The notes under the pieces were generated by a model. That model made no database searches and was not told the DNA's origin. It saw only the letters and a list, made by a program, of their open reading frames with translations. Source: an uncultured Acidobacteriaceae bacterium (GTDB lineage: Bacteria > Acidobacteriota > Terriglobia > Terriglobales > Acidobacteriaceae). From it: 64,000 bases of DNA. The stretch is from NCBI GenBank assembly GCA_963730135.1, contig CAVSQQ010000008.1:291500-355499 (forward strand), read 5' to 3'. Both the position numbers and the translations under genes were made by a program. Below, piece after piece: positions 21,246 through 32,182 of the stretch; the stretch's first letter is position 1, and every line of letters begins with the position of its first letter.

Positions 21246-23045
21246 TCAGGGCGCCTGTGCCGTAACGTCTTGTTTTACGATCGCGGACGACTTCAACTCG
21301 ATGGGAACACCCTGCATCAAATAGCGCCGAAGCGTCGACGGATCGCCCCAGTTCACCCCCCACCCATGGTCGATGGCAACCAGAATGTATTGCCCGGGAA
21401 GGACATTGGCCAGAGAAAAACTTCCGTCGGTATTCGTCTGGTCCTGCCGTAGTACGGTGATCGAGTCGCGATCTTCAATCGTGATCGGAACCAGCAGAAT
21501 CATCGCGCCCACCGACGGTTTTCCATCCATCGTCGCGATGCCGCTAAGACTCGCGCGGCCACTCGCCACGTGCACTGTCAGGCTGGACTCGCCCGCCGCC
21601 ACGGTCACATACCGCCCCGAAGTCTCCGCTCCTTTCGCTGTCAGTCCAGCCAGAAAAAGATTCGCTCGACTCTGTAGCACCACCTCATAACGCCCCGGTG
21701 GAACCTCGATCGTGGGATCGCCGTCCGGCTCTCGCGTCTCACGACGCGCTAAAGCGACACCGCCTCCCTCAAAACTATTCGTGGAAAAACTTCCGCGGTG
21801 CGTATCCATATCCACCAGACTCACCCGGAGTCCACCGTTGCGGCCTCCTCTCGAACTCGAGTCGGACTCCACAGCGCCGTCGAAGTGCACTGTGATCTTC
21901 GCCACGTCATGCGGCGGAGCGCTCAGGTCCACCGTCCGCGTCGAGTTCGCACTCACTTCCACCAGCGTGGAGTCGCCCTCCCGGTTTGGCCCCGCCAGAC
22001 TCACCCGGTACAGTCCCGGCGTCAGCCCCCCAACATCGATCTGGCCCTGTTGATCGTACCGTGTCGTGATCTGGACAAACCCCTGTCCCGCACCCGGAGT
22101 CATCTGCTGAATCACAGGAAACGCCGACGACCCCAGCGACGAGTTCTGCCCATTCGTTGTCCGCGGTGGAACCAGAATTCGCATGTGAAGCGAAGGCACC
22201 GGCACCAGGTGAAAGTCCGCCTGCCGCGTGTCGCCTGCATGAAGTTCGATCGTCTCCGCAAGCGCAGCGTCGGCAACTCCCGGGAACCACGTAACCGGAT
22301 AAGCAAAGTCCAGCGACGGATCGAGCGAAGCGGAATCCGTCTCGTTCCCACGCCCGTTTTGCGAATTCACGGCATACCACGGCTGCGCATGAAGACTCAG
22401 TCGATACGCTCCCGGAGAAAGATTTGCCAGCTCATACATGCCTCGGTCGTCGGTTCGCGCAACACCTCGCGTATTGCCGATCGGCTCCGGCCCTCCCGGC
22501 GTCGGTGGCGGAACAATCTGCAGCGTCACCTGAGCATTGCGCACCGGCTCGCCCGCTTCATCCAGAACAAGACCCGCGATGCTCGCCTCCGGGCTCAGCC
22601 GGAATTCAATATCTATCGTCGGCGCTTCCGCTGTCAGCACGATCGCGCTGGAGTACGCCTGATGCTCGTCGTAAGCCTGGCTGACAAATCCCCGCGCGCT
22701 CGCCGTCAGCCGCCACGCACCCGCCGACGGAACCGTGACCGCAAACCGCCCATGCGCATCGCAATCCACGCTGTTCGTCGCGCCCGACGCAGGGGAGCCC
22801 AGGGCAGGGAATTGCCGGCCGCCAACGCCCCCACGTCCAGCAGTCAGGGTCGGCGTCAGCCGGCAATGCGCCACCGGGTCACCGCCCACGCTGTTAACCA
22901 CGACGCCGGTAATCTCATAGTGCGGCACAGCTCCGTTCTGCTTCACCTGCGCCGAAGCCGCCCCAAGCCCCGAAACAAGCCCCGCTATCCCCGCCCACCC
23001 GATCACCACCGCCGAAAAGATTCGTACCGCCCCCTCTCGTCTCAA
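21246..23045 (-). CDS. Exported carboxypeptidase-regulatory-like (CarboxypepD_reg/Cna-B) repeat protein
   Basis: Signal region; repeated ITGVVVNS, IAGLVLDEAGEPV...TDDRGMYEL..L.PG.Y beta-sandwich units. Confidence 0.75.
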   Translation of the reverse strand: MRREGAVRIFSAVVIGWAGIAGLVSGLGAASAQVKQNGAVPHYEITGVVVNSVGGDPVAHCRLTPTLTAGRGGVGGRQFPALGSPASGATNSVDCDAHGRFAVTVPSAGAWRLTASARGFVSQAYDEHQAYSSAIVLTAEAPTIDIEFRLSPEASIAGLVLDEAGEPVRNAQVTLQIVPPPTPGGPEPIGNTRGVARTDDRGMYELANLSPGAYRLSLHAQPWYAVNSQNGRGNETDSASLDPSLDFAYPVTWFPGVADAALAETIELHAGDTRQADFHLVPVPSLHMRILVPPRTTNGQNSSLGSSAFPVIQQMTPGAGQGFVQITTRYDQQGQIDVGGLTPGLYRVSLAGPNREGDSTLVEVSANSTRTVDLSAPPHDVAKITVHFDGAVESDSSSRGGRNGGLRVSLVDMDTHRGSFSTNSFEGGGVALARRETREPDGDPTIEVPPGRYEVVLQSRANLFLAGLTAKGAETSGRYVTVAAGESSLTVHVASGRASLSGIATMDGKPSVGAMILLVPITIEDRDSITVLRQDQTNTDGSFSLANVLPGQYILVAIDHGWGVNWGDPSTLRRYLMQGVPIELKSSAIVKQDVTAQAP

Positions 23046-24736
23046 GGCGTCACCTCCGCCACCGGAACCGCATCCAGGTTCAGCGTCGGTTTATCCCCCA
23101 CGTTCACCGTAACCGAATGCACGTGGCTGCTGAACGTCGCAAGTGCCGTCGCATCCCGGTAGTCGGCCGAGTGCCGCTGTTCAAACGCAATCGCCCGGTA
23201 ACTCCCCGGCGGCAGATGAGTCACCGTGAAGGCGCCCGTTGTGCTGCTCCGCAGCGTGATCACCGCCTGTGCGCTCGGTCCGTTCGGTATCAGATAAATC
23301 CAGCACGACGCCGGACTCCCATTAAGATTCACCGCACCTTGCAGGCTGCCCGTCTGGTCGCTCACCGTCACCCGGATCGGACTGCCCGCCGCCCCCGGCA
23401 CCACCACAAGATCCCCTTGCAGCAAATCCGAGTCGCCATAGCTCACCGACTTGATGTACCACGACCCCGTATTCCGTCCCTCCAGCCGGTACCGCCCCGG
23501 CGGCGCAGTAAAGACGAAGCTCTGGTCCCGCCGCATCGTCGGCCGGATCGTCCCGTCGCCCCGGTCAGGATCAGGTTCCGCGCTCTGCAACTGCAATCCC
23601 AGCTGCTGCAGAGCAGGTGGCTGCTCACTGTTATCGGACGTCGAAGACGTATCAATCACCAACTCCACCGCAATCGACGGAACCGGAGAAAACTGCAGCA
23701 CCACCCCCGAAATATCGTGGTCGGGAACCGTCACCGTCGTCTCCGCCTGCTCCGGCCGCTCCTGATCGTTTCTTCGCGCCGTCAGCGTATACGTCCCCTG
23801 GGGAAGCTGTATCTTCGTCTCCCCGCTCGTCCCGCTGATCTGTGGATTCACCTGTAGCGTGCTTCCATCGCTCGATCGCGCTGTGATCCTCACAAAATCC
23901 CGGCCCGGGGAAGCCTCCACCGCCGTCGTCACGGTATGGACCGGCCCCACCCCCGGCCGTAGTTCAAAGTGCACCTCTTCGCCGCTATGAACCGTGATCG
24001 CCTGCGCACCACTATTAGATGAACTATCGCTCGGAACCGTCACAGGCAAAACAGCTTCTCCGATCGTGCGATCCTGCGGAGTATAGCGTGTTTCCAGCCT
24101 GTACTCGCCCGCCGACTCTGGCAGCCGGAAGTTCCCATGCGAATCCGTCTGCGTCTGGCCCACCGTCTGCCAGCGGTGCCCGGAATCATCGTAGAACCCC
24201 CGCAGCGCCGTCACTTGAATCCGCGGCAGCGGCGTGCCGTCCGGAGCGATCACCGTCCCCGTCAGCACAGCCTCAGGATAGAGCCGTAGCTCCAGCGGCA
24301 CTCCCATCTGCGCTCCGCGAAGAAACACATTACCCGCCTCCTGCATCTCCGTCGTGGCCGTATACCCCGGCTTGCTCACCAGCACATTGGCGCTGCTCTG
24401 CGTATTCTGCTCGAACCGGAACTTGCCATCATGATCGGTCAGAACCGCCCGGCTATTCAGCCGCACCAGCGCCCGCGCAATCGGCGCTCCCGTGCTTGCA
24501 TTGATCACCTGGCCCATCACCGTGCTCGGCGCCGTCGTGTCGGCTGATCCTCCCGCCGGCGAACTTCCCACCGAACCGGCGCTCAACTGCGCACGCACCG
24601 TCGTGCAGGGAATCGCAAGAAATGCCCCACACACCAAGAGGGAAAACAGCAGGCCGGGGCCTCCACAGGACACCATCCGGACTGGCGACAAAAACCACAC
24701 CGCGCGAAACCACCTGTGAACCATAAGACGACCCAC
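23042..24736 (-). CDS. Exported carboxypeptidase-regulatory-like repeat protein (paralog, coupled by 4-bp overlap)
   Basis: VMGQVINASTGAPI, LTGTVIAPDGTPL...TDSHGNFRL, TTGAFTVTHLPPGSY. Confidence 0.75.
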   Translation of the reverse strand: MGRLMVHRWFRAVWFLSPVRMVSCGGPGLLFSLLVCGAFLAIPCTTVRAQLSAGSVGSSPAGGSADTTAPSTVMGQVINASTGAPIARALVRLNSRAVLTDHDGKFRFEQNTQSSANVLVSKPGYTATTEMQEAGNVFLRGAQMGVPLELRLYPEAVLTGTVIAPDGTPLPRIQVTALRGFYDDSGHRWQTVGQTQTDSHGNFRLPESAGEYRLETRYTPQDRTIGEAVLPVTVPSDSSSNSGAQAITVHSGEEVHFELRPGVGPVHTVTTAVEASPGRDFVRITARSSDGSTLQVNPQISGTSGETKIQLPQGTYTLTARRNDQERPEQAETTVTVPDHDISGVVLQFSPVPSIAVELVIDTSSTSDNSEQPPALQQLGLQLQSAEPDPDRGDGTIRPTMRRDQSFVFTAPPGRYRLEGRNTGSWYIKSVSYGDSDLLQGDLVVVPGAAGSPIRVTVSDQTGSLQGAVNLNGSPASCWIYLIPNGPSAQAVITLRSSTTGAFTVTHLPPGSYRAIAFEQRHSADYRDATALATFSSHVHSVTVNVGDKPTLNLDAVPVAEVTP

Positions 24737-24800
24737 ACTGATATTAGTGAGAGTTAGCCATCATTGGAGCCGTACGAAGCAGTATTCCTATTCGCACTGT

Positions 24801-24828
24801 ACGTCCGATAACACATATTATGTATAGT
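24801..24828 (+). other. Candidate XerC/XerD dif site
   Basis: ACGTCCGATAA-CACATA-TTATGTATAGT, 11-6-11 layout with ATAA-N6-TTAT core; 21/28 identical to B. subtilis dif by hand. Confidence 0.7.
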
Positions 24829-24958
24829 CACGTCATGCGCAGCGATTTGGCCCCTCAAGCCAGTTCTTCCTGCCGGCATGTCTCACTCGCCCAATCCTCT
24901 GCTCACACTACCGCACAGCCATAACTTTGAATTGCCTTCGGATATGCCTCACCCACCA

Positions 24959-25219
24959 TCAATTAGAACGAATCAATTCCGCCCCAACCACCATCCCAAC
25001 CTCACACCCGCCACCGACAAAGTGAACCACCTCCAGCCGGTCGCCCGCGCTCACCCTCGTCTCACCCCACACTCCCCGCGGAACGATCGCCCCGTTATGC
25101 TCTACCGCCACCCGGTCCGCCTTCAATCCAAGTTCGCCAATCAGCTGTTCCAGACTCGCCGCCTGCGCCAGACCATCGAACGCACGCGACTCCCCATTGA
25201 GAATGACCGTCAGCGACAT
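24959..25219 (-). CDS. thiS: Sulfur carrier protein ThiS with 15-aa extension after the GG motif
   Basis: ILNGE, RVAVEHNGAIVPR, GDRLEVVHFVGGG. Confidence 0.9.
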   Translation of the reverse strand: MSLTVILNGESRAFDGLAQAASLEQLIGELGLKADRVAVEHNGAIVPRGVWGETRVSAGDRLEVVHFVGGGCEVGMVVGAELIRSN

Positions 25220-25285
25220 GGCTTCAGCCTAGCAGAGGTGCACCAGATTCCAATACCGGCGGATTATCAGACATTCGCCACCCAA

Positions 25286-25642
25286 CTACTCCAACAGCCG
25301 CACCGCCCTGCTCATCAGCCACTCTTCAAACTTCTTACTCAGCGTCCTCCGCTCCGCGAACTCCTCGAACACCTCCCGGCTCAGCCTCATCAAAATGTGA
25401 ATCGCCTCCGCAGCCGACCCATGGTCAACCGCCTGCCCCGAATATCTCCGCGAGTGCGCCAGATACTCCGCTGCATGACCCAGCGTCAGTAGCGTGCGGC
25501 CATGATGCGTCTTCGTGATGCGATGGATCGTCAGGTCCCCGACACTTGACGCCTCCCTGCCCTGCGACAGGCTGGGAAAACTTCGAACCTTCTGAGGAAC
25601 CAATGCTGGGCGGCTCGCGCCGGGAATCGCTGCTGTAGCCAT
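25286..25642 (-). CDS. Hypothetical protein
   Basis: 118-aa ORF, GGAG before ATG, plausible helical composition, fills intergenic space. Confidence 0.6.
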   Translation of the reverse strand: MATAAIPGASRPALVPQKVRSFPSLSQGREASSVGDLTIHRITKTHHGRTLLTLGHAAEYLAHSRRYSGQAVDHGSAAEAIHILMRLSREVFEEFAERRTLSKKFEEWLMSRAVRLLE

Positions 25643-25747
25643 GGACGTTAAATCCTCCGTCCACCTTCCTATCGGCTCCAGCTACTCAGGCTTTATCGCA
25701 ACCATAGCGCCGCAGCGATCGGTTCGCTTCGCCTCCCCACCAAAAGT

Positions 25748-25810
25748 CGTCATCTCGACCGAAGCTGTTCACAGCCTTATCGTGAACAGCGTAGTGGAGA
25801 GACTCCCGCA
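25748..25810. repeat. CGTC-headed REP-like palindromic element
   Basis: CGTCATCTCGACCGAAG-GCTGTTCAC/GTGAACAGC inverted repeat-GTAGTGGAGAGAC; same layout as the 27486 array. Confidence 0.6.
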
Positions 25811-25970
25811 TTTGCCTTTGCAGCTGTCTGTTCACCCAAGCATGAGTGCCCTATCTGGGCCCCGTGCTCCAATCGCAGAGGTTCTAAGTTCAGCCATTCG
25901 TAGCCGCCCCGCGCTTCTTCTTCCCGATTCTGCACGCCTCTCGAACCGGCGGCCTCTCAAAATCCTGCGT

Positions 25971-26783
25971 CTACTCATCCCGCAGCGGCCACAGATGGTT
26001 CACCGGCCCCAGCCCCTTGCCGATCGGCCCAGCCGTTCGAATCGCCTCCGCCACATACCGTTTCGCCATCACCGCCGCCTCCCTGGCATCGTCCCCCAGT
26101 ACCAGCCGACTCAGCAATGCACTCGAAAATGCGCATCCCGTTCCATGCGTCGACCGGCTCACAATCTGCTCCCCCGGCAGCCACAGCATCTCTCCTTCGG
26201 CCGGCAACAACAGATCGTCCGGCGGATTCAGATGCCCTCCTGTCACCACCACATTCAGCTCCCACCCCATACCCTGCAGCGCCGCCGCAGCCTCTTCCAC
26301 ATCTTCTCTCCGCTTCACCGGCCGGCCCGTCAGCACACCCAGCTCATCCAGATTTGGCGTCACCCAGTCCACCATCGGCAGCAGGCTCTCGCGTAGCACC
26401 GTCACCCCCGCCGCATCCAGCAGTTCCCTTCCCGAGCTCGAGCGCAATACCGGATCGAGTACAACCGGCACCCGTTCATCCTCGCCCCGCAGCTCCTCCA
26501 GAAACTTCGCGACAACCGCCACATTTGCCGCCGTCCCCAGCATCCCGATCTTGATCCCCGCCGGCGGAAGATCGCTCTCGAGACAACTCAGCGTAGCCCG
26601 CACAATCTCCGGCGGCACTGCGCTTGTCGCACGCACTCCGGCCGTCGACTGCACCGTCAGGCTCGTCACACACGAGGTCCCGAACAGACCATGCGCCGCA
26701 AACACCATCAGGTCGGCCGTCGCGCCCGCACCCGACGATGGATCGAACCCGGCAATCGTCAGGACCGTCTGCATTGCCATCAC
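25971..26783 (-). CDS. thiD: Hydroxymethylpyrimidine/phosphomethylpyrimidine kinase
   Basis: VLTIAGFDPSSGAG, IKIGML, VLDPV, VTPNLDE, THGTGC. Confidence 0.93.
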   Translation of the reverse strand: MMAMQTVLTIAGFDPSSGAGATADLMVFAAHGLFGTSCVTSLTVQSTAGVRATSAVPPEIVRATLSCLESDLPPAGIKIGMLGTAANVAVVAKFLEELRGEDERVPVVLDPVLRSSSGRELLDAAGVTVLRESLLPMVDWVTPNLDELGVLTGRPVKRREDVEEAAAALQGMGWELNVVVTGGHLNPPDDLLLPAEGEMLWLPGEQIVSRSTHGTGCAFSSALLSRLVLGDDAREAAVMAKRYVAEAIRTAGPIGKGLGPVNHLWPLRDE

Positions 26784-27427
26784 TCCGGATGCGTCTTCAG
26801 AAACTTCGTGTAGTCCGTGTCCAGCGTCTGCATCAGCCCGTCGATCAGCGTCAACTGCACCTGCAGAATCTGAATATTGGTTTTGATCGCCATCGCCTCG
26901 GCCGCGCCTGGATTGCGATCGCCCTTGTCCAAATTAAAGATCGGCGCCACGCTCACCACCGTGTCGCGGACAGCCTGTGTCTCCGCATCGTCAATCTCAT
27001 GCTGCTGATCGTAGATGTCGGAGTACTCCTGTGCCTGCGCGTACGGCATATACGAGAACGCCCCCGTGGACTGCGCCGTCTTCCAGCTCACATCGTCGAA
27101 TCCGCGAATCTTGAACTTCACCTGCAGATACTCGTAGTTCGGCACCTTCGGATTGGCGATGATCCTCTCGAGAATCGCGAGATCCTGCGTCAACACCTTC
27201 TCTTCGTTGCGCACGCCCTCCAGGTTCTCCGCCATGCTCTTGGAATTGTTGCGTATCTCCATGCGAAGGCTCGCATCGGCATCGCGCACCAGATGCCGAT
27301 GGTGCTGCCACTCCACACACCCTTCCATACTCAGCGCGATCAGCAGTCCTATCGTGATCGTGGTCAGGTGCACAAAAAAATCGCGCCAGCCTCGCACTGG
27401 CTCGTTCGGAGGATGAACATCAAGCAC
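26780..27427 (-). CDS. Hypothetical membrane-anchored coiled-coil protein
   Basis: N-terminal TM (FFVHLTTITIGLLIALSM), helical body; overlaps thiD start. Confidence 0.7.
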   Translation of the reverse strand: MLDVHPPNEPVRGWRDFFVHLTTITIGLLIALSMEGCVEWQHHRHLVRDADASLRMEIRNNSKSMAENLEGVRNEEKVLTQDLAILERIIANPKVPNYEYLQVKFKIRGFDDVSWKTAQSTGAFSYMPYAQAQEYSDIYDQQHEIDDAETQAVRDTVVSVAPIFNLDKGDRNPGAAEAMAIKTNIQILQVQLTLIDGLMQTLDTDYTKFLKTHPE

Positions 27428-27485
27428 TGTCGGTCGTCTCCTGTTTTCCCGGTATCGCCAAGCCTACCAAACCCTCCTCATCCTG

Positions 27486-27708
27486 CGCTTAAACGCTCGT
27501 CATCTTGAGCGAAGTTTGGAGCTTCCTCCAAACGCAGTCGAAGGATCTGCGGTTGCATTTGCTTCGCTTAAACGCTCGTCAACCTAAGCGAGTTTGGAGC
27601 TTGCCCCGAACCCTGTCGAAGGACCTGCGGTTGCATTTTCCTTCGCTTAAACGTTCGTCATCCTGAGCGAAGTTTGGAGCTTGCTCCAAACGCAGTCGAA
27701 GGACCTGC
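27486..27708. repeat. Three tandem 79-bp REP-like units
   Basis: Units start at 27486, 27565 and 27644; each has CGTCATCCTGAGCGAAG-like head, TTTGGAGC/GCTCCAAA hairpin (degenerate in unit 2) and GTCGAAGGACCTGC tail. Confidence 0.9.
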
Positions 27709-27822
27709 CAAGAATTCAACTCACAGCAACGTTCGAATCTTTCCGCCCGCATGTCTGCATTTGCCTTCGCTTCCGGATAGCGTTAGCCGCTGGGCAATCC
27801 TTCCTTCGTCGCGCCCACAAAG

Positions 27823-27863
27823 AGCAGCTAAACTAAATCCGTGCAGCCCACCGAAACCCCTCG
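27823..27863 (+). repeat. 41-bp direct repeat, copy 1 (duplicate of pyrF -10 region and first codons)
   Basis: AGCAGCTAAACTAAATCCGTGCAGCCCACCGAAACCCCTCG, identical to 28601-28641. Confidence 0.95.
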
Positions 27864-27887
27864 GCGGGTGGCCCAGATCTAAAATTT

Positions 27888-27930
27888 GGGTGCCCCATCT
27901 TCGCGACAGTTTCATCGTCGCTAAGGTGGG
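27888..27930. repeat. REP-like imperfect palindrome
   Basis: CCCATCTT-C-GCGAC ... GTCGC-T-AAGGTGGG hairpin. Confidence 0.6.
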
Positions 27931-28036
27931 CTCTCTTCCATGACGATGATTTTCCGCGACAGGAAGTTTGTAAAATAACGGACAACAAACGTTCTCCTGC
28001 GTCTATGACAGTTTGTTTAAATGATTTTTTGAAAGA

Positions 28037-28321
28037 ATGGCGTTGATCCCTATGAATCGAACCTCGCTGCTTTTGGGATGGTTGCTGTCAGCCTCCAAAA
28101 CAAAGGTGTTGTACGTGTTAATTGGAGCAACCACCTTCAGTCTCCTTCTCATCGCCAATGGAATTTACATAGTCATCTTTGGCCGTATCGGACCAAACTT
28201 ACGCCGGTTTCCGGAATCAGGAAAAGTTCTATCGCGTGCTCAACGCTTGATCGCTGCAAGCATGTACATCATTTTCGGAACTGCAATCCTGGTGGCATTA
28301 TTTACCACCGGCCAATACTGA
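28037..28321 (+). CDS. Small low-GC membrane protein
   Basis: 94 aa, 2-3 hydrophobic segments, AT-rich codon usage. Confidence 0.55.
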   Translation: MALIPMNRTSLLLGWLLSASKTKVLYVLIGATTFSLLLIANGIYIVIFGRIGPNLRRFPESGKVLSRAQRLIAASMYIIFGTAILVALFTTGQY

Positions 28322-28354
28322 TAGACTGCCTACTCAAACTAAAGGAATATCCGC

Positions 28355-28576
28355 ATGAGATTTTTGGTGATTGCTCTTGTCTCTATGTCAATTTGTGGCT
28401 TATCGGCACTTTGCATAGTACGTCCCGATATTGCTATTGGTTGGGCAAAGAGAGCGCATCCAGAATACGCAGGCGATGGAGCGGAGACTGCGTGGGTGGT
28501 CAGGTTAATCGGCGCAGGGGGAATCTTCATTGGGTTATATATCATCGCCCTACTTATCAGGGCAGTTGTTAGCTGA
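28355..28576 (+). CDS. Small low-GC membrane protein
   Basis: 73 aa, two TM segments, AAGGA RBS. Confidence 0.6.
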   Translation: MRFLVIALVSMSICGLSALCIVRPDIAIGWAKRAHPEYAGDGAETAWVVRLIGAGGIFIGLYIIALLIRAVVS

Positions 28577-28600
28577 TCCGCGAAGAATGCAACGCACCAA

Positions 28601-28641
28601 AGCAGCTAAACTAAATCCGTGCAGCCCACCGAAACCCCTCG
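28601..28641 (+). repeat. 41-bp direct repeat, copy 2 (start of pyrF)
   Basis: Identical to 27823-27863. Confidence 0.95.
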
Positions 28642-29354
28642 CGCCCCCAAAGACCGCCTCGCCATCGCACTCGACTTCCCCGGCGAACGCGACGCCTTGA
28701 ATCTCGTCGATCGCCTCGGCGAAACCTGCCAGTGGTACAAGGTCGGCATGGAGCTCTACTACGCCGCCGGCAACCGCATCGTGCAGCAACTTCGCGACCG
28801 TGGCTTCAACGTCTTCCTCGATCTCAAGCTTCACGACATCCCCAACACCGTAGCCGGCGCCGTCCACTCCGCCGCCCGTGCCGGAGCGTCCCTGCTCACC
28901 ATTCACGCTGCCGGCGGCTCCGCCATGATGTCTGCCGCAGCCCAGGCCGCCTCCGCCCCGGGCTCCCCTCGACTCCTCGCCGTCACCGTCCTCACCAGCA
29001 TGGACACCAGCCAGCTCGCCGGCATCGGCATCGCCGCCTCCCCTGCCGATCAGGTCCTGCGCCTTGCCAGACTCGCCCAGGCCTCAGGCATCGACGGCAT
29101 GGTCTGCTCCGCCGAAGAGGTCGCCATGGTGCGCCAGCAGACCGGCCCATCCACGCTGCTCGTCGTCCCTGGAATCCGTCTCGCCGATGCCCCGGCCGAT
29201 ATCCCGACGAGACCAGAAACGTGTCGCCACCCCCGCCCGGGCCATCGCCCTCGGAGCCTCGATGCTCGTCGTCGGCCGTCCCATCACCCGCGCTGCCGAC
29301 CCCGCCCAGGCCGCTCGCTCTATCCTCGACGAGATCGCCCAAGCCGCCAACTGA
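28619..29354 (+). pseudogene. pyrF: Orotidine-5'-phosphate decarboxylase, frameshifted near 29198-29210 (or assembly error)
   Basis: IALD, KVGMEL, FLDLKLHDIPNTV, VPGIR in one frame; DQKRVATP...LVVGRPIT in another frame (net +1 nt). Confidence 0.9.
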
Positions 29355-29522
29355 AAATAAAGTTTGAAAAAGTGGAAAATCTTCCGGCCCGGAAAAGTGT
29401 CCGTCAACATTCCACGTTTCACCAGCGAACCACCACAACTTCACCAGCAAAATACCACGTTTAAAACGCACTTTTTCGCAAAAACCCCTGCAAAAACGCC
29501 CTTCCACCACAGCAGGAAAAAA
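29354..29522 (+). repeat. ~170-bp dispersed non-coding repeat, copy 1
   Basis: Roughly 85-90% identical by hand to the reverse complement of 32269-32437. Confidence 0.9.
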
Positions 29523-29524
29523 CC

Positions 29525-30421
29525 CTAAATTTCGCCCCCGTGCGTCACATTCATGTCGCTCAAGCGAAGCGCCAGCGCCTTGGCCGACCCGCCCCCGCGC
29601 TGGAACTCGCCAAGCTCCGTCTGGACCACCTCAAAGCCACGCTCTGTCAATCGTTTAGCCAGGTCCGATTCCACCGTCCCCATCAGGATCTCCCGCCCGA
29701 TATTGATGACATTGCAGCCAAATTGTGTCGCCTCCAACTCGCTGACAACAATGCGCTTGTCCGCCTCATACGCCGCCTCAATCTTCGCCCTCGAAGCCGC
29801 ATCAAAAGCCTCCGGAAAATAAAGCAGATACTCGCCACTCAACGGCGCAAAACAAAGATCGAGATGAAAAAATCGCGGATCCACCAGGTGCAGCGAAGTC
29901 ACCGGCGTATGCCACGCATTCGACACATGCCGATGGCTATGGTGGCATGTTCGAGTCCCATGCGCAGCCCATAAATGCCCGCCATTCGCGTCGAACAACG
30001 CGTCGCCTTCGCCTTCAAACGAGGTCTCACGCGGCGTCGCCCATATCAGAAAACCCGCGTCCTCAAGCCACTGCCGCACAGCCTGTTCCTCGCTCTGCCG
30101 CTGCGGATGAGTGAAACTCGAAATCGCTGCGACTCCATGCTGAACCACCGCTGCATGAGCCACAAAAACCATGTCCGGCGAGCCCTCTCGCGCAGGAAGC
30201 AGCCGAACATCGGCGATCCGCTGCAGCTCCTGATACAGATTCTTCCACTGCATAAACGCAGTGTCGCGCGATGGTTGATGAAGATTCCCCGCCATCCACG
30301 GGTTAATCACGTAGTCGACGTCATACCATTCCGGCGGACACATCAGATAGGTGGGGCGATCGAAATGCGGAAGCGACGCAAAGCCCGAGGCGGAGGATGA
30401 TGCAGCCGGCGTGGTAATCAT
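29525..30421 (-). CDS. Amidinotransferase superfamily protein (dimethylargininase/arginine deiminase-like)
   Basis: YVINPWM, PDMVF, FEGEGD, FHLDLC, GGGSAKAL (the usual C-terminal catalytic Cys of GGSAKC appears as Ala). Confidence 0.85.
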   Translation of the reverse strand: MITTPAASSSASGFASLPHFDRPTYLMCPPEWYDVDYVINPWMAGNLHQPSRDTAFMQWKNLYQELQRIADVRLLPAREGSPDMVFVAHAAVVQHGVAAISSFTHPQRQSEEQAVRQWLEDAGFLIWATPRETSFEGEGDALFDANGGHLWAAHGTRTCHHSHRHVSNAWHTPVTSLHLVDPRFFHLDLCFAPLSGEYLLYFPEAFDAASRAKIEAAYEADKRIVVSELEATQFGCNVINIGREILMGTVESDLAKRLTERGFEVVQTELGEFQRGGGSAKALALRLSDMNVTHGGEI

Positions 30422-30550
30422 AAAACAGGGTTCCTACTTTCCATCGAAGAGTCTGCCCGTCGTGACCGATGATCGTCAAGTGCCTGCCAGGAAATTATTT
30501 GTACAACTTTGGTCCCTCTGTATGCACCGCGATTCCGGCACTTAGCCGGC

Positions 30551-30582
30551 AAAACAAAAGAGCCCATAAAAGGGCTCCTTTG
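30551..30582 (-). terminator. Rho-independent terminator of the small zinc-ribbon gene
   Basis: Minus strand GAGCCC-TTTTAT-GGGCTC followed by TTTTGTTTT. Confidence 0.7.
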
Positions 30583-30606
30583 TCCTACCTTCAAAACAGG
30601 CAGTTC

Positions 30607-30786
30607 TTAGAGTTTTTCGAAAAAATCGCACGCCGAGCAGGAGATATACACTCCGCCGGGAGTACCGCGCTCCCGGTCCTTGACGCGCTTGACGATGCGG
30701 GTGGGTTTGGAGCACTTCGGACAGTCCGTGCTCTTGTTGGTATCCATGACTTTCTTACGGTCGCCGGTCTTGGCAATCTTCGCCAT
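30607..30786 (-). CDS. 59-aa basic zinc-ribbon protein (not in ORF track)
   Basis: MAKIAKTGDRKKVMDTNKSTDCPKCSKPTRIVKRVKDRERGTPGGVYISCSACDFFEKL; AGGGAG RBS; downstream terminator. Confidence 0.85.
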   Translation of the reverse strand: MAKIAKTGDRKKVMDTNKSTDCPKCSKPTRIVKRVKDRERGTPGGVYISCSACDFFEKL

Positions 30787-30988
30787 AATGCTTGTCTCCC
30801 TGTTGCAAATATCGATACAAATATTGCGGCTCGCGCGCTGGATAGATAGATTGGCTCCCCGCCCTCGCGGACGAGCAGAATCGAATCATCCGTAACTTCT
30901 CTTGGAGATTGTCCGGGGTCGTCCACGGGGAAATCAGATGGAGAAGAACTGCGATTGAGGCTCTTCTACAAGTCTACACGAGGACTGC

Positions 30989-32182
30989 CTACTCCATGGG
31001 AGGCCTCTTCGGGATTGATCCTGGACCAGCCCCGGGGTTCGTTCCAGGGCCAGGCCCGAGCCCCGGTCCCTGAGGCGTGGAGGAGGGATCGCTGGACGAG
31101 GGCGGTGGTGGAATCGGCGCCACCGGAGTATTCGTATCCGTCGGGAACTGTACTTTGCCCTGCCCCCCGTCAGGTACTGGCTCTCCGGGCAGGCGCAATG
31201 TCGGAGCAGCAGGCTTCTTGTCCTCGCCCGATGCCGGCTGCGGATCGCCCATCGCCACCTCACGTGTCTGCGGCGGCGCGTTGAAACCGTCCATCTCATC
31301 CTTATCGTGGATCTCGATCGGCTTACCGAGCGCTGCAATCTCGACCACGGTGACGCGATCGCCGACGAAGCGAACGAAACGAATCGTCTGAGGCACGTGC
31401 CCGTAGATCCACTCCTCGTAGCGTCCGCCGTTGGGGTCACCGCTTTGCTGTTCGCGCATCTTGTTCTCCGGTGCGCCCAGCGCGGCGAGAACCATCCGGT
31501 GATTCATTCCGACCAGCACCTCGTGAGCTGCGATTGCCTCTTTCAGCACTGGTGGAAGCGTGTCAGCGTAAGCCTGTTCCGAGGATTTAACTCCAAAATC
31601 GATCAGCGGCTCCAGCAGCGCTTTGACTTCGGGACCGGATATCTCCGGTATCCCGCCCTCGAAGACGAGGGTGATGCGAGAGCCGGTTGCGACCTCGCCG
31701 GTGTTCTGCGTCACTGGAGCGTCATTGAGCTCAACGTGGCTCAGGAAGCGATGTTTCGCATAGGGGCCGCCGTTGAAATCCAGAACGATGCGATCGCCCT
31801 TGAACTCGAGCGCTGTGATCACAACACGGTCGCCGGGAGCTGCGGCCTGGCCTTTTTCGTAGATCAATTTTCTGTAGGCTGCCGGGGCAGGAGTGAGTTG
31901 TCCATTCGCTTGCAGCACGATGCCGGAGCTGATGGGCAGGGCGCGATGAGCGAAGCCCTGCTCTGCCACGAGGTTGCGGACGAGTCCACGGCGTCCGCGC
32001 TCGGAGAGCTTTTCCTGGGGTAGAGGCACGCGCGTGGGAGTGAAATCGGTGGCGATGTCGGCGGTCGCGGATTTTTCGCCGACGGTGAAGACCTGAGCGT
32101 GGGCAGCGCTGAAAGATAAGGCCAGAAGGCCTGCGATGAGGGCCGAACTACGGATGAGGACCGATCTGTGGAGGAGTGCCAT
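30989..32182 (-). CDS. Exported hypothetical protein with Pro/Gly-rich tail
   Basis: Signal peptide (AHA-Q), GAGGTG RBS, VGMNHRMVLAALGAP...EEWIYG motif. Confidence 0.75.
   Translation of the reverse strand: MALLHRSVLIRSSALIAGLLALSFSAAHAQVFTVGEKSATADIATDFTPTRVPLPQEKLSERGRRGLVRNLVAEQGFAHRALPISSGIVLQANGQLTPAPAAYRKLIYEKGQAAAPGDRVVITALEFKGDRIVLDFNGGPYAKHRFLSHVELNDAPVTQNTGEVATGSRITLVFEGGIPEISGPEVKALLEPLIDFGVKSSEQAYADTLPPVLKEAIAAHEVLVGMNHRMVLAALGAPENKMREQQSGDPNGGRYEEWIYGHVPQTIRFVRFVGDRVTVVEIAALGKPIEIHDKDEMDGFNAPPQTREVAMGDPQPASGEDKKPAAPTLRLPGEPVPDGGQGKVQFPTDTNTPVAPIPPPPSSSDPSSTPQGPGLGPGPGTNPGAGPGSIPKRPPME

Follow-up and report, generated by a model that had tools for sequence, protein, structure and literature searches.

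The window, a stretch of 64,000 nucleotides on contig C8 of the genome of an uncultured Acidobacteriaceae bacterium (Terriglobales, Acidobacteriota), contains a small insert at the 5' end of pyrF, with a 41-bp direct repeat (AGCAGCTAAACTAAATCCGTGCAGCCCACCGAAACCCCTCG) on either side (Table 1). The two copies of the repeat are 100% identical and start 778 bp apart; the 737 bp between them comprise, in this order, a REP element, an AT-rich stretch, two genes for small membrane proteins (p1 and p2) and a short spacer. The G+C content of the insert is 47%, compared to 58.5% (about 59%) in the genome and 61% in the flanks.

Table 1. The insert at pyrF and its surroundings (positions are those of the window)
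Feature	Position	Strand	Remarks
Direct repeat, copy 1	27823..27863	+	extended -10 AGCTAAACT, GTG start at 27841, 23 nt of pyrF coding sequence
TAAACT of copy 1	27829-27834	+	within the extended -10 AGCTAAACT
13-codon mini-ORF	27841..27882	+	VQPTETPRRVAQI, then stop; by-product, duplicated pyrF start running into the REP
REP element, two hairpins	27863..27937	+	75 nt; 5' module GGCGGGTGGCCCA...GGGTGCCCCAT
AT-rich stretch	27938..28036	+	99 nt, upstream of p1
p1, 2-TM small membrane protein	28037..28321	+	ORF of 94 aa
p2, 2-TM small membrane protein	28355..28576	+	73 aa, AAGGA ribosome-binding site
Spacer	28577..28600	+	24 nt, after p2
Direct repeat, copy 2	28601..28641	+	working -10 and start of pyrF; TAAACT 28607-28612, GTG 28619
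pyrF, orotidine-5'-phosphate decarboxylase	28619..29354	+	target gene; PF00215, E 6.7e-48

The 41-mer occurs exactly twice in the 4.95-Mb genome, and no further copy or relative of it was detected in this genome or in 40 relatives. By chance, no such repeat is expected (0 matches in 100 shuffles, with up to 3 mismatches tolerated). The repeat is sharp-edged, given that the 40-nt flanks of the two copies are unrelated (identity of merely 17-23%); a 5-nt sequence, CAAAG, is found immediately 5' of both copies, with a 2-nt offset. Each copy extends from 6 nt 5' of TAAACT to the second base of pyrF codon 8 (7.7 codons), and the DNA to the left of copy 1 is the native upstream DNA of pyrF. The reading frame opened by the duplicated start in copy 1 (GTG CAG CCC ACC GAA ACC CCT CGG CGG GTG GCC CAG ATC TAA) ends at the TAA codon at 27880-27882. 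The genome contains further sharp-edged inserts flanked by 26-31-bp repeats that duplicate gene ends; other repeat-flanked inserts are those at C13:988522/991784, C10:552026/552778 and C13:1047996/1051185. A link between the 41-mer and a candidate dif site 3 kb away was considered and rejected, the 41-mer containing no dif-like sequence. Contig C8 shows a very strong G+C skew with a change of sign across 240-350 kb, which places the window near the replication terminus.

Comparison of the region upstream of pyrF among related genomes delineates what has been duplicated. The pyrF genes of 14 relatives follow G[CT]TA[AG]ACT (GYTARACT), with 6-7 nt between this motif and the ATG or GTG; one further relative (L020) has TACACT 21 nt 5' of the pyrF ATG. 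Across the 14 relatives compared, neither a conserved sequence beyond GYTARACT nor a Shine-Dalgarno sequence was found upstream of the gene. Judging from this conservation pattern, the layout is that of a leaderless mRNA, with a predicted promoter that is essentially an extended -10, which amounts to comparative evidence for a leaderless pyrF across a Terriglobales genus. Because the segment from GYTARACT to the start codon is the only part conserved upstream of pyrF, the 41-mer duplicates the whole conserved expression module; in copy 2, exactly 6 nt separate the extended -10 from the start codon of pyrF. These observations bear out several claims of the initial annotation, which was made from the DNA letters of the window: that perfect 41-bp direct repeats 778 bp apart (100% identical, and present twice in the genome) duplicate the promoter and start of pyrF (GYTARACT-N6/7-ATG/GTG is conserved in the 14 relatives); that copy 1 runs into a stop after 13 codons and copy 2 restores pyrF (as seen from the open reading frames and the PF00215 match); and that copy 1 places the pyrF TAAACT -10 in front of the cargo, where the -10 is now backed by conservation.

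The two closest species (G018 and G021, pyrF 79-82% identical at the nucleotide level) have a single promoter/start copy that is continuous with pyrF, and all 14 relatives likewise have one promoter and one start. The polarity of the event, that is, insertion, would follow from this comparison with other species, at about 80% identity. Within the same species, a PyrF metagenome scan and exact-protein look-ups did not detect an empty-site allele; the nearest other matches of the PyrF scan are at 78-81% amino acid identity. Of the empty site that the initial annotation had proposed to look for among relatives, the single copy in other species (G018, G021) has thus materialized, and the conspecific empty allele has not.

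Another line of evidence comes from a second strain. The neighbouring gene (215 aa), used as the query for exact protein matches, led to a conspecific contig of 1.54 Mb (contig_14017, ENA metagenome assembly ERZ25039534) that is 99.63% identical to the window across positions 23000-31425. With 33 differing positions, this contig represents a different, independently assembled strain; it contains both copies of the repeat and an identical insert, with zero differences across 27739-29169. The presence of the same structure in a second, independently assembled strain implies that the structure did not arise during assembly. A Logan contig of a different run ends 30 nt into copy 1, where a graph with k=31 would be expected to break on meeting a 41-bp repeat, and the conspecific contig together with two short Logan contigs, retrieved by exact-protein look-ups, are all compatible with a filled site. 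Artefact or contamination, under which the repeat or the insert would be missing from the real chromosome, draws what support it has from the repeat length, an odd number that could equal a k-mer size; set against the identical structure in the independent 1.54-Mb contig of the other strain (33 differences in 8.4 kb) and the occurrence of relatives of both the REP and the cargo within the same genus, it can practically be dismissed. Apart from the insert, pyrF itself is frameshifted in this genome by a 2-nt deletion, accompanied by three substitutions, at 29205-29209, inside a cluster of 11 differences, and is intact (245 aa) in the conspecific strain; this frameshift, which has no connection with the insert, is either a lesion specific to the strain or an error.

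The insert begins with the REP, the first base of which is the last base of repeat copy 1. This element belongs to a dispersed family with about 28 copies in the genome and many across the genus; it folds into two hairpins (z -2.4) and has no T-tract terminator. The genome carries five Y1_Tnp (RAYT-like Y1 transposase) genes, two of which have the 5' module of the REP alongside: the same module flanks the RAYT genes at C11:174712-175175 and C12:17182-17680. Acidobacterial Y1 transposases with associated repeats have been described previously (PMC3733652). At the insert, the single REP occupies the left end only, with neither a second REP nor a right-end hairpin detected, and the arrangements in which two REPs form an inverted doublet (REPIN) or bound both ends were not encountered in the window. 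The AT-rich stretch that follows may contain a promoter of the cassette's own; no match to the consensus was detected in it. No open reading frame for a recombinase, integrase or transposase and no Pfam mobility domain was identified in the insert, no inverted repeat joins its ends, no Rfam match was obtained across 27300-29500, and the insert produced no matches in plasmid and phage collections. The initial annotation, which described a REP-like palindrome and two small membrane-protein genes with no recombinase, was correct on this point, and the palindrome can now be assigned to a dispersed REP family. Two familiar classes of small mobile units were considered. An integron gene cassette was rejected given that the REPs are dispersed, and the few same-strand clusters of them enclose ordinary genes of normal G+C content and not arrays of small ORFs; a transposon, MITE or mobile insertion cassette does not fit either, with no terminal inverted repeats and a duplication of 41 bp.

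The cargo is present in a single copy in the genome. The p1 and p2 proteins contain two hydrophobic segments apiece and conserved loops, GRIGPNLxRxPESGKVLS in p1 and RPDxxxxWAKRAHPExAGD in p2; the homologues of p1 align from the ATG at 28052, which corresponds to a protein of 89 aa. With dN/dS of 0.18-0.40 relative to the nearest relatives, p1 and p2 are under purifying selection and are real genes. They belong together: pairs of p1 and p2 in the same order were found at L026, L108, L115/L116, L117 and L118/L119, and both P0013 and genome G308 have a single fusion protein of the two. The p1 family is small, with only 17 representatives among 1.8 billion clustered proteins. Searches of NCBIfam, PADLOC, PHROGs and PDB yielded no family match for either protein, and in Pfam there was only a sub-threshold match to Cad.

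The neighbourhood of the homologues suggests a function. In L026, L115/L116, L117, L118/L119 and G308, the p1-p2 pair or fusion is located directly 3' of a gene with a common C-terminus, ...AGLSxSATxxACxH[FIY] followed by the stop, and the gap between this C-terminus and the pair, measured in L026 and L115, is 50-60 nt. The upstream protein in L115 contains RHS repeats (PF05593, E 3.3e-15) and the core-end motif LDPFGL (DPxGL), beyond which lies a glycine-rich domain of 214 aa that includes hydrophobic stretches; in G308, IDPSGL precedes a homologous C-terminal toxin domain, the fused p1p2 and an orphan fragment of the toxin domain. The slot directly after the C-terminal toxin domain of an Rhs protein is the place of the cognate immunity gene. 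No match to the toxin domain was found in Pfam or PDB. The domain is absent from the genome studied here: tblastn finds only Rhs core ends, the order-wide search for the domain produced no match in this genome (G000), and a search upstream of p1 for a remnant of the 3' end of a toxin gene yielded nothing significant. Because the homologues follow an Rhs toxin domain and this genome lacks that domain, we consider p1-p2, on the evidence of gene neighbourhood only, to be probably an orphan immunity pair. As small inner-membrane proteins, p1 and p2 would neutralise the glycine-rich, probably membrane-acting C-terminal toxin of an Rhs protein that neighbouring acidobacteria would deliver. The initial annotation had suggested comparing the cargo proteins with immunity, defence and cassette families; the cargo indeed appears immunity-like by virtue of the Rhs-toxin neighbourhood, with no match to a known family. 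Taken together, these loci define an uncharacterised Rhs C-terminal toxin domain along with a putative two-part, sometimes fused, membrane immunity protein.

The distribution of the cassette is sporadic. The cargo DNA is absent from 24 genomes of the same genus; the p2 profile produced matches in 4 other genomes among the 301 of the order, none of these in the same genus, and a lone p2-like gene was found in one Terriglobales MAG among 185,579 species representatives. The closest relatives of the cassette come from two metagenome contigs, L107 and L108, where it is 84-86% identical at the nucleotide level and the flanking genes are 80-87% identical to those of this genome. In L108, the arrangement p1-p2-spacer-REP adjoins a PEP-mutase gene, and the contig is cut off within p1; in L107, p2-spacer-REP lies between glycosyltransferase and histidine-kinase genes. 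With the copy at pyrF, the cassette therefore occupies three different loci in three related genomes. At the site equivalent to that of L107, the genome studied here has a different, 1.6-kb insert of low G+C content. No flanking repeat was detected at the L107 cassette or at the L108 cassette (as far as the latter extends, being cut off within p1). A 22-nt imperfect repeat around the L107 cassette was treated as chance because it is in coding sequence that this genome also keeps, and a 9-mer (ACGCACCAA) shared by one L107 junction and the right end of the insert in the window was treated as a coincidence.

The order of elements in these contigs differs from that at pyrF. In both L107 and L108, a REP with the same 5' module comes after p2 (in L107, following a 28-nt spacer), whereas in the window the REP sits at the opposite end. 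If the right end of the insert is joined to its left end, with the 41-mer left out, the L107 order is obtained almost base for base. Other genomes have the two ends of the insert side by side, which suggests that the intermediate was circular or REP-to-REP and was opened exactly at the 5' edge of the REP. At the left junction, CTCG, the end of the repeat, also precedes the REP in one of the 7 other long copies (C13:734620), and the right junction shares AG, so that the possible microhomology amounts to 2-4 nt per junction (CTCG on the left, AG on the right).

The combination of features at pyrF matches a previously reported class of events, insertion with long target duplication (Nobusato, Uchiyama, Ohashi & Kobayashi 2000, Gene 259:99; Furuta, Abe & Kobayashi 2010, NAR 38:2428, PMC2853133). 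This class is characterised by a flanking repeat of more than 30 bp and of variable length, a short insert without mobile-element genes, and a related genome in which the uninterrupted site has the repeat only once; the duplications frequently extend over a start or stop codon, so that the target gene remains whole (PMC2853133). At pyrF, the repeat is 41 bp and is found twice in the genome between unrelated flanks (17-23% identity), which is not the pattern of a multi-copy family, and the 737-bp insert, far below the 20-kb bound of the class, contains p1, p2 and the REP only, with no integrase, transposase or phage genes and no inverted repeats; the single copy in G018, G021 and all 14 relatives represents the uninterrupted site, in other species. 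Given the repeat, the content of the insert, the genomic associations of the cargo and the absence of mobility genes, all of them direct observations, we favour, with modest confidence, an explanation in which a putative orphan Rhs-immunity cassette, together with a REP, inserted once at pyrF and left a long target duplication of 41 bp.

The following reconstruction of the joining event and of the resulting transcription is conditional. In an ancestor of this Terriglobales species, foreign DNA would have been joined into the leaderless promoter/start region of pyrF after the target was broken, leaving 41 nt of the target on both sides, with no element-encoded recombinase and no terminal inverted repeats involved. 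Presumably, a piece of unit length was joined via microhomologies of 2-4 nt, and the 41 nt were filled in or re-copied. The microhomology argument is thin, with CTCG preceding only 1 of 7 other long REP copies and AG comprising just 2 nt. The exact coincidence of the left junction with the 5' edge of the REP is not predicted by random breakage, and the shared CAAAG could indicate that the element carried its own pyrF-like arm. We know of no enzyme that makes 41-nt staggered breaks. After the insertion, copy 1 would give rise to a leaderless transcript with its 5' end at 27841, extending across the REP into p1-p2; this transcript would have the accidental 13-codon ORF translated from its 5' end, and p1 and p2 would be translated from their own ribosome-binding sites. 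Copy 2 would still yield leaderless pyrF mRNA: its -10 is kept 6 nt before the pyrF start, which makes a leaderless mRNA possible and would explain why the insertion was tolerated. As pyrF appears to need a start codon at the 5' end of its mRNA, it would depend on copy 2, so that without the duplication the insertion would probably have cost pyrF expression. The literature on long target duplication gives no mechanism; a double-strand break has been suggested (PMC2853133).

The main competing view is that of the initial annotation, which read the repeats as attL and attR of a non-autonomous integration. In this case, the repeats would be the crossover region of a non-autonomous (CIME-like) integrative element or of a Campbell-type integration, in which a circular cassette with its own copy of the 41-bp (or slightly longer) pyrF promoter/start recombined with the chromosome, by means of a trans-acting integrase or of RecA using short homology. 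The perfect, sharp-edged repeats and the circular permutation of the insert relative to L107 suit a circular intermediate; the genome has 16 tyrosine-recombinase matches as well as tRNA-type islands with 28-42-bp repeats; the offset CAAAG could reflect imperfect similarity beyond a core, as between attP and attB; and precedent exists for a promoter-supplying integration at a gene start, SXT integrating into the 5' end of prfC and providing it with a new promoter. However, the genome and 40 relatives contain no second 41-mer or relative of it, so the parent element is not visible, and no related integrase-encoding element carries the repeats as att sites; none of the 16 tyrosine-recombinase matches is on contig C8. 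The cassettes of the same genus in L107 and L108 are at loci other than pyrF, without such a repeat and with no 41-mer between spacer and REP. Furthermore, the insert encodes no recombinase, the excised form was found in neither of the two strains, and a homology of 41 bp is close to the minimum for recombination by RecA. Since neither another att-like copy nor a parent element was detected and the cassette lies at different sites in different genomes, a single break-and-join or copy-choice event is favoured over site-specific integration, which we regard as possible, if unlikely. The recombinase-less mini-insert described in the initial annotation is thus real, but its attribution to site-specific integration is not supported as stated, with no second 41-mer and with cassettes at other loci that lack the repeat. 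Deletion of the insert by recombination between the two 41-bp repeats, also suggested there, is possible in principle; both known strains keep the insert.

The copy-choice version invokes replicative template switching (fork stalling or microhomology-mediated break-induced replication), whereby the nascent strand left the pyrF leader after ...CCCCTCG, copied one cassette unit starting from the REP edge and re-annealed 41 nt upstream of its exit, with the REP hairpins as the point of stalling or switching. This scenario accounts for the 2-4-nt microhomologies at both junctions and for a junction that falls exactly on a hairpin-forming REP; another partial duplication of a gene end abuts a REP (C10:552026/552778), and long, variable duplications of this class have no assigned enzyme (PMC2853133). 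The genome contains no copy of the cargo that could have served as a template, entry and exit at the same point of the template, exactly one unit length apart, would not be expected, and the outcome would be difficult to distinguish from that of break repair in the favoured explanation; we deem template switching quite improbable. Still less credence is given to mobilisation by the REP/RAYT system, in which Y1 (HUH) transposases would cut at the 5' edges of two direct REPs and the resulting single-stranded REP-to-REP unit with p1-p2 would integrate at a pseudo-site in the pyrF leader. Here, the insert begins exactly at the REP 5' module (GGCGGGTGG edge), the same as on the left of two RAYT genes, a REP with this module comes after p2 in L107 and L108, the genome has its five Y1_Tnp genes, and repeat-associated Y1 transposases are on record for acidobacteria (PMC3733652). 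The counterevidence is that the window contains only one REP and no right-end hairpin, that no conserved target tetranucleotide precedes the REP copies, and that REPs are so common in intergenic regions that adjacency is weak evidence. Transposition of the IS200/IS605 type, moreover, produces no target duplication, and we consider this route very improbable. A hybrid of REP/RAYT mobilisation and long target duplication, suggested by the junction exactly on the REP edge and put forward as a speculation with a low chance of being right, is that REP-associated Y1 transposases or the REP hairpins make passenger-carrying units and host repair inserts these with a long target duplication. If so, the pyrF locus would be the first mechanistic handle on this type of insertion, REP/RAYT systems would be found to mobilise immunity genes, and several other inserts flanked by 26-31-bp repeats, including one that abuts a REP, would have arisen in the same way.

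If insertion with long target duplication is the correct reading of the pyrF locus, recombinase-free events of this type extend to Acidobacteriota and to cargo other than restriction-modification systems. Such an insertion could place a newly arrived gene pair behind the leaderless promoter of a housekeeping gene and leave the target gene expressible, and the junction located exactly at the REP edge is a small but concrete lead on a mechanism that has been obscure since 2000.

Among the known systems, the closest is insertion with long target duplication itself: a repeat of more than 30 bp flanks a short insert devoid of integrase, transposase and inverted repeats, the repeat is a single-copy target in related genomes and spans a translation start, the pyrF target is kept intact, and the cargo is a conflict-type gene set. 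The differences are that the cargo is a putative toxin-immunity pair plus a REP, not a restriction-modification system, that the host is an acidobacterium, that the repeat duplicates a leaderless promoter and so gives the cargo a housekeeping promoter, and that the ends of the insert are circularly contiguous and on a REP edge, with no empty site found in the same species. Like CIMEs and other att-flanked non-autonomous islands, the insert lies between identical direct repeats and itself lacks recombination genes; unlike CIMEs, it shares its repeat with no related integrase-bearing element, it is not site-specific across genomes and, at 737 bp, it is far smaller than those described. With REPIN/RAYT systems the insert shares a left-end hairpin REP that has the same 5' module as the REPs beside two RAYT genes, but it contains a single REP, not an inverted doublet, and REPINs with passenger genes, or 41-bp duplications made by REPINs, are not known. 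Orphan immunity genes occur in Rhs/CDI displacement arrays and in the acquired interbacterial defence clusters of Bacteroidales. The likeness of p1-p2 to orphan immunity genes of polymorphic toxins consists in small genes with homologues directly 3' of a toxin C-terminal domain, present without the toxin, sporadically distributed and of foreign base composition; unlike those in arrays, p1-p2 form a lone cassette at a housekeeping promoter, outside any Rhs displacement or recombinase-associated array, and, in contrast to known orphan immunity genes, the putative immunity is split between two 2-TM proteins of an uncharacterised family that are fused in some genomes.

Relatives of p2, one of the two small membrane-protein genes of the insert, occur in other genomic settings. 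In a contig of the same genus, p2 together with a REP lies between genes for a glycosyltransferase and a histidine kinase. At this position the source genome instead has a 1.6-kb, low-G+C insert of two genes, one of which encodes a HELGHxxG metalloprotease-like motif; the site is a variable hot spot. A different genus of the same family carries a lone p2-like gene of 80 aa, a further orphan context of p2, and about 460 bp from it lies a 335-aa ORF for a putative ISXO2/IS1595-like transposase. A putative Rhs C-terminal toxin domain accompanied by a predicted membrane immunity protein was observed at two loci (L131 and L115); the domain is glycine-rich, contains hydrophobic stretches, produced no match in Pfam or PDB and is uncharacterised. 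In the genome that harbors L131, the toxin is followed by a gene in which the immunity pair is fused, and then by an orphan fragment of the toxin domain.

Elsewhere in the source genome, four other direct-repeat pairs enclose 0.75-15.9 kb of DNA; two of the four duplicate a gene 3' end, and a REP adjoins one repeat copy among them. These pairs may represent additional cases of insertion with long target duplication; alternatively, they may mark islands.

Comparison of the pyrF starts (window 28601-28621 and pyrF loci L010-L018 and L027-L030) shows that GYTARACT, followed after 6-7 nt by ATG or GTG, is kept upstream of pyrF in 14 relatives; no Shine-Dalgarno sequence is present, and pyrF appears to be leaderless throughout the genus. 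In the source genome, the pyrF frame is shifted by a 2-nt deletion with three substitutions, within a 100-bp cluster of 11 differences from the 99.6%-identical strain, where pyrF is intact (245 aa). Because pyrF is present in a single copy, either the organism is a uracil auxotroph or the frameshift stems from an error in the assembly.

The G+C skew of contig C8 (per 10 kb) reaches +/-0.3 and switches sign across C8:240-350 kb; the window (C8:291500-355499) is therefore situated in the terminus region. A candidate dif site agrees with this placement.

Locations of the features (G000, source genome; G081 and G308, other genomes of the order; L, compared loci)
Feature	Location	Repeat length
Second REP-type family	window 27479-27718	
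Candidate dif site	window 24801-24828	
pyrF frameshift	window 29205-29209	
Difference cluster	window 29170-29267	
RAYT-like Y1 transposase gene, direct REPs on flanks	G000:C11:174590-175250	
RAYT-like Y1 transposase gene, direct REPs on flanks	G000:C12:17050-17729	
Direct-repeat pair, unique, sharp edges	G000:C13:988522/991784	26 bp
Direct-repeat pair, unique, sharp edges	G000:C10:552026/552778	31 bp
Direct-repeat pair, unique, sharp edges	G000:C13:1047996/1051185	30 bp
Direct-repeat pair, unique, sharp edges	G000:C9:339039/354903	~106 bp
1.6-kb two-gene insert	G000:C10:439546-441170	
p2 and REP, same gap	L107:1157-1600	
Lone p2-like gene	L132 (G081:C16:173677-173880)	
Putative Rhs toxin domain	L131 (G308:C2:4191400-4193750)	
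Putative Rhs toxin domain	L115:1-2444	

Just 5' of the insertion, three tandem units of 79 bp represent a second REP-type family, copies of which are found in many genomes of the genus. The source genome contains five Y1_Tnp genes in total, and the GGCGGGTGGCCCA module of the insert's edge is also present in the left REP of both genes resembling RAYTs, the REP-associated Y1 transposases (C11 and C12).
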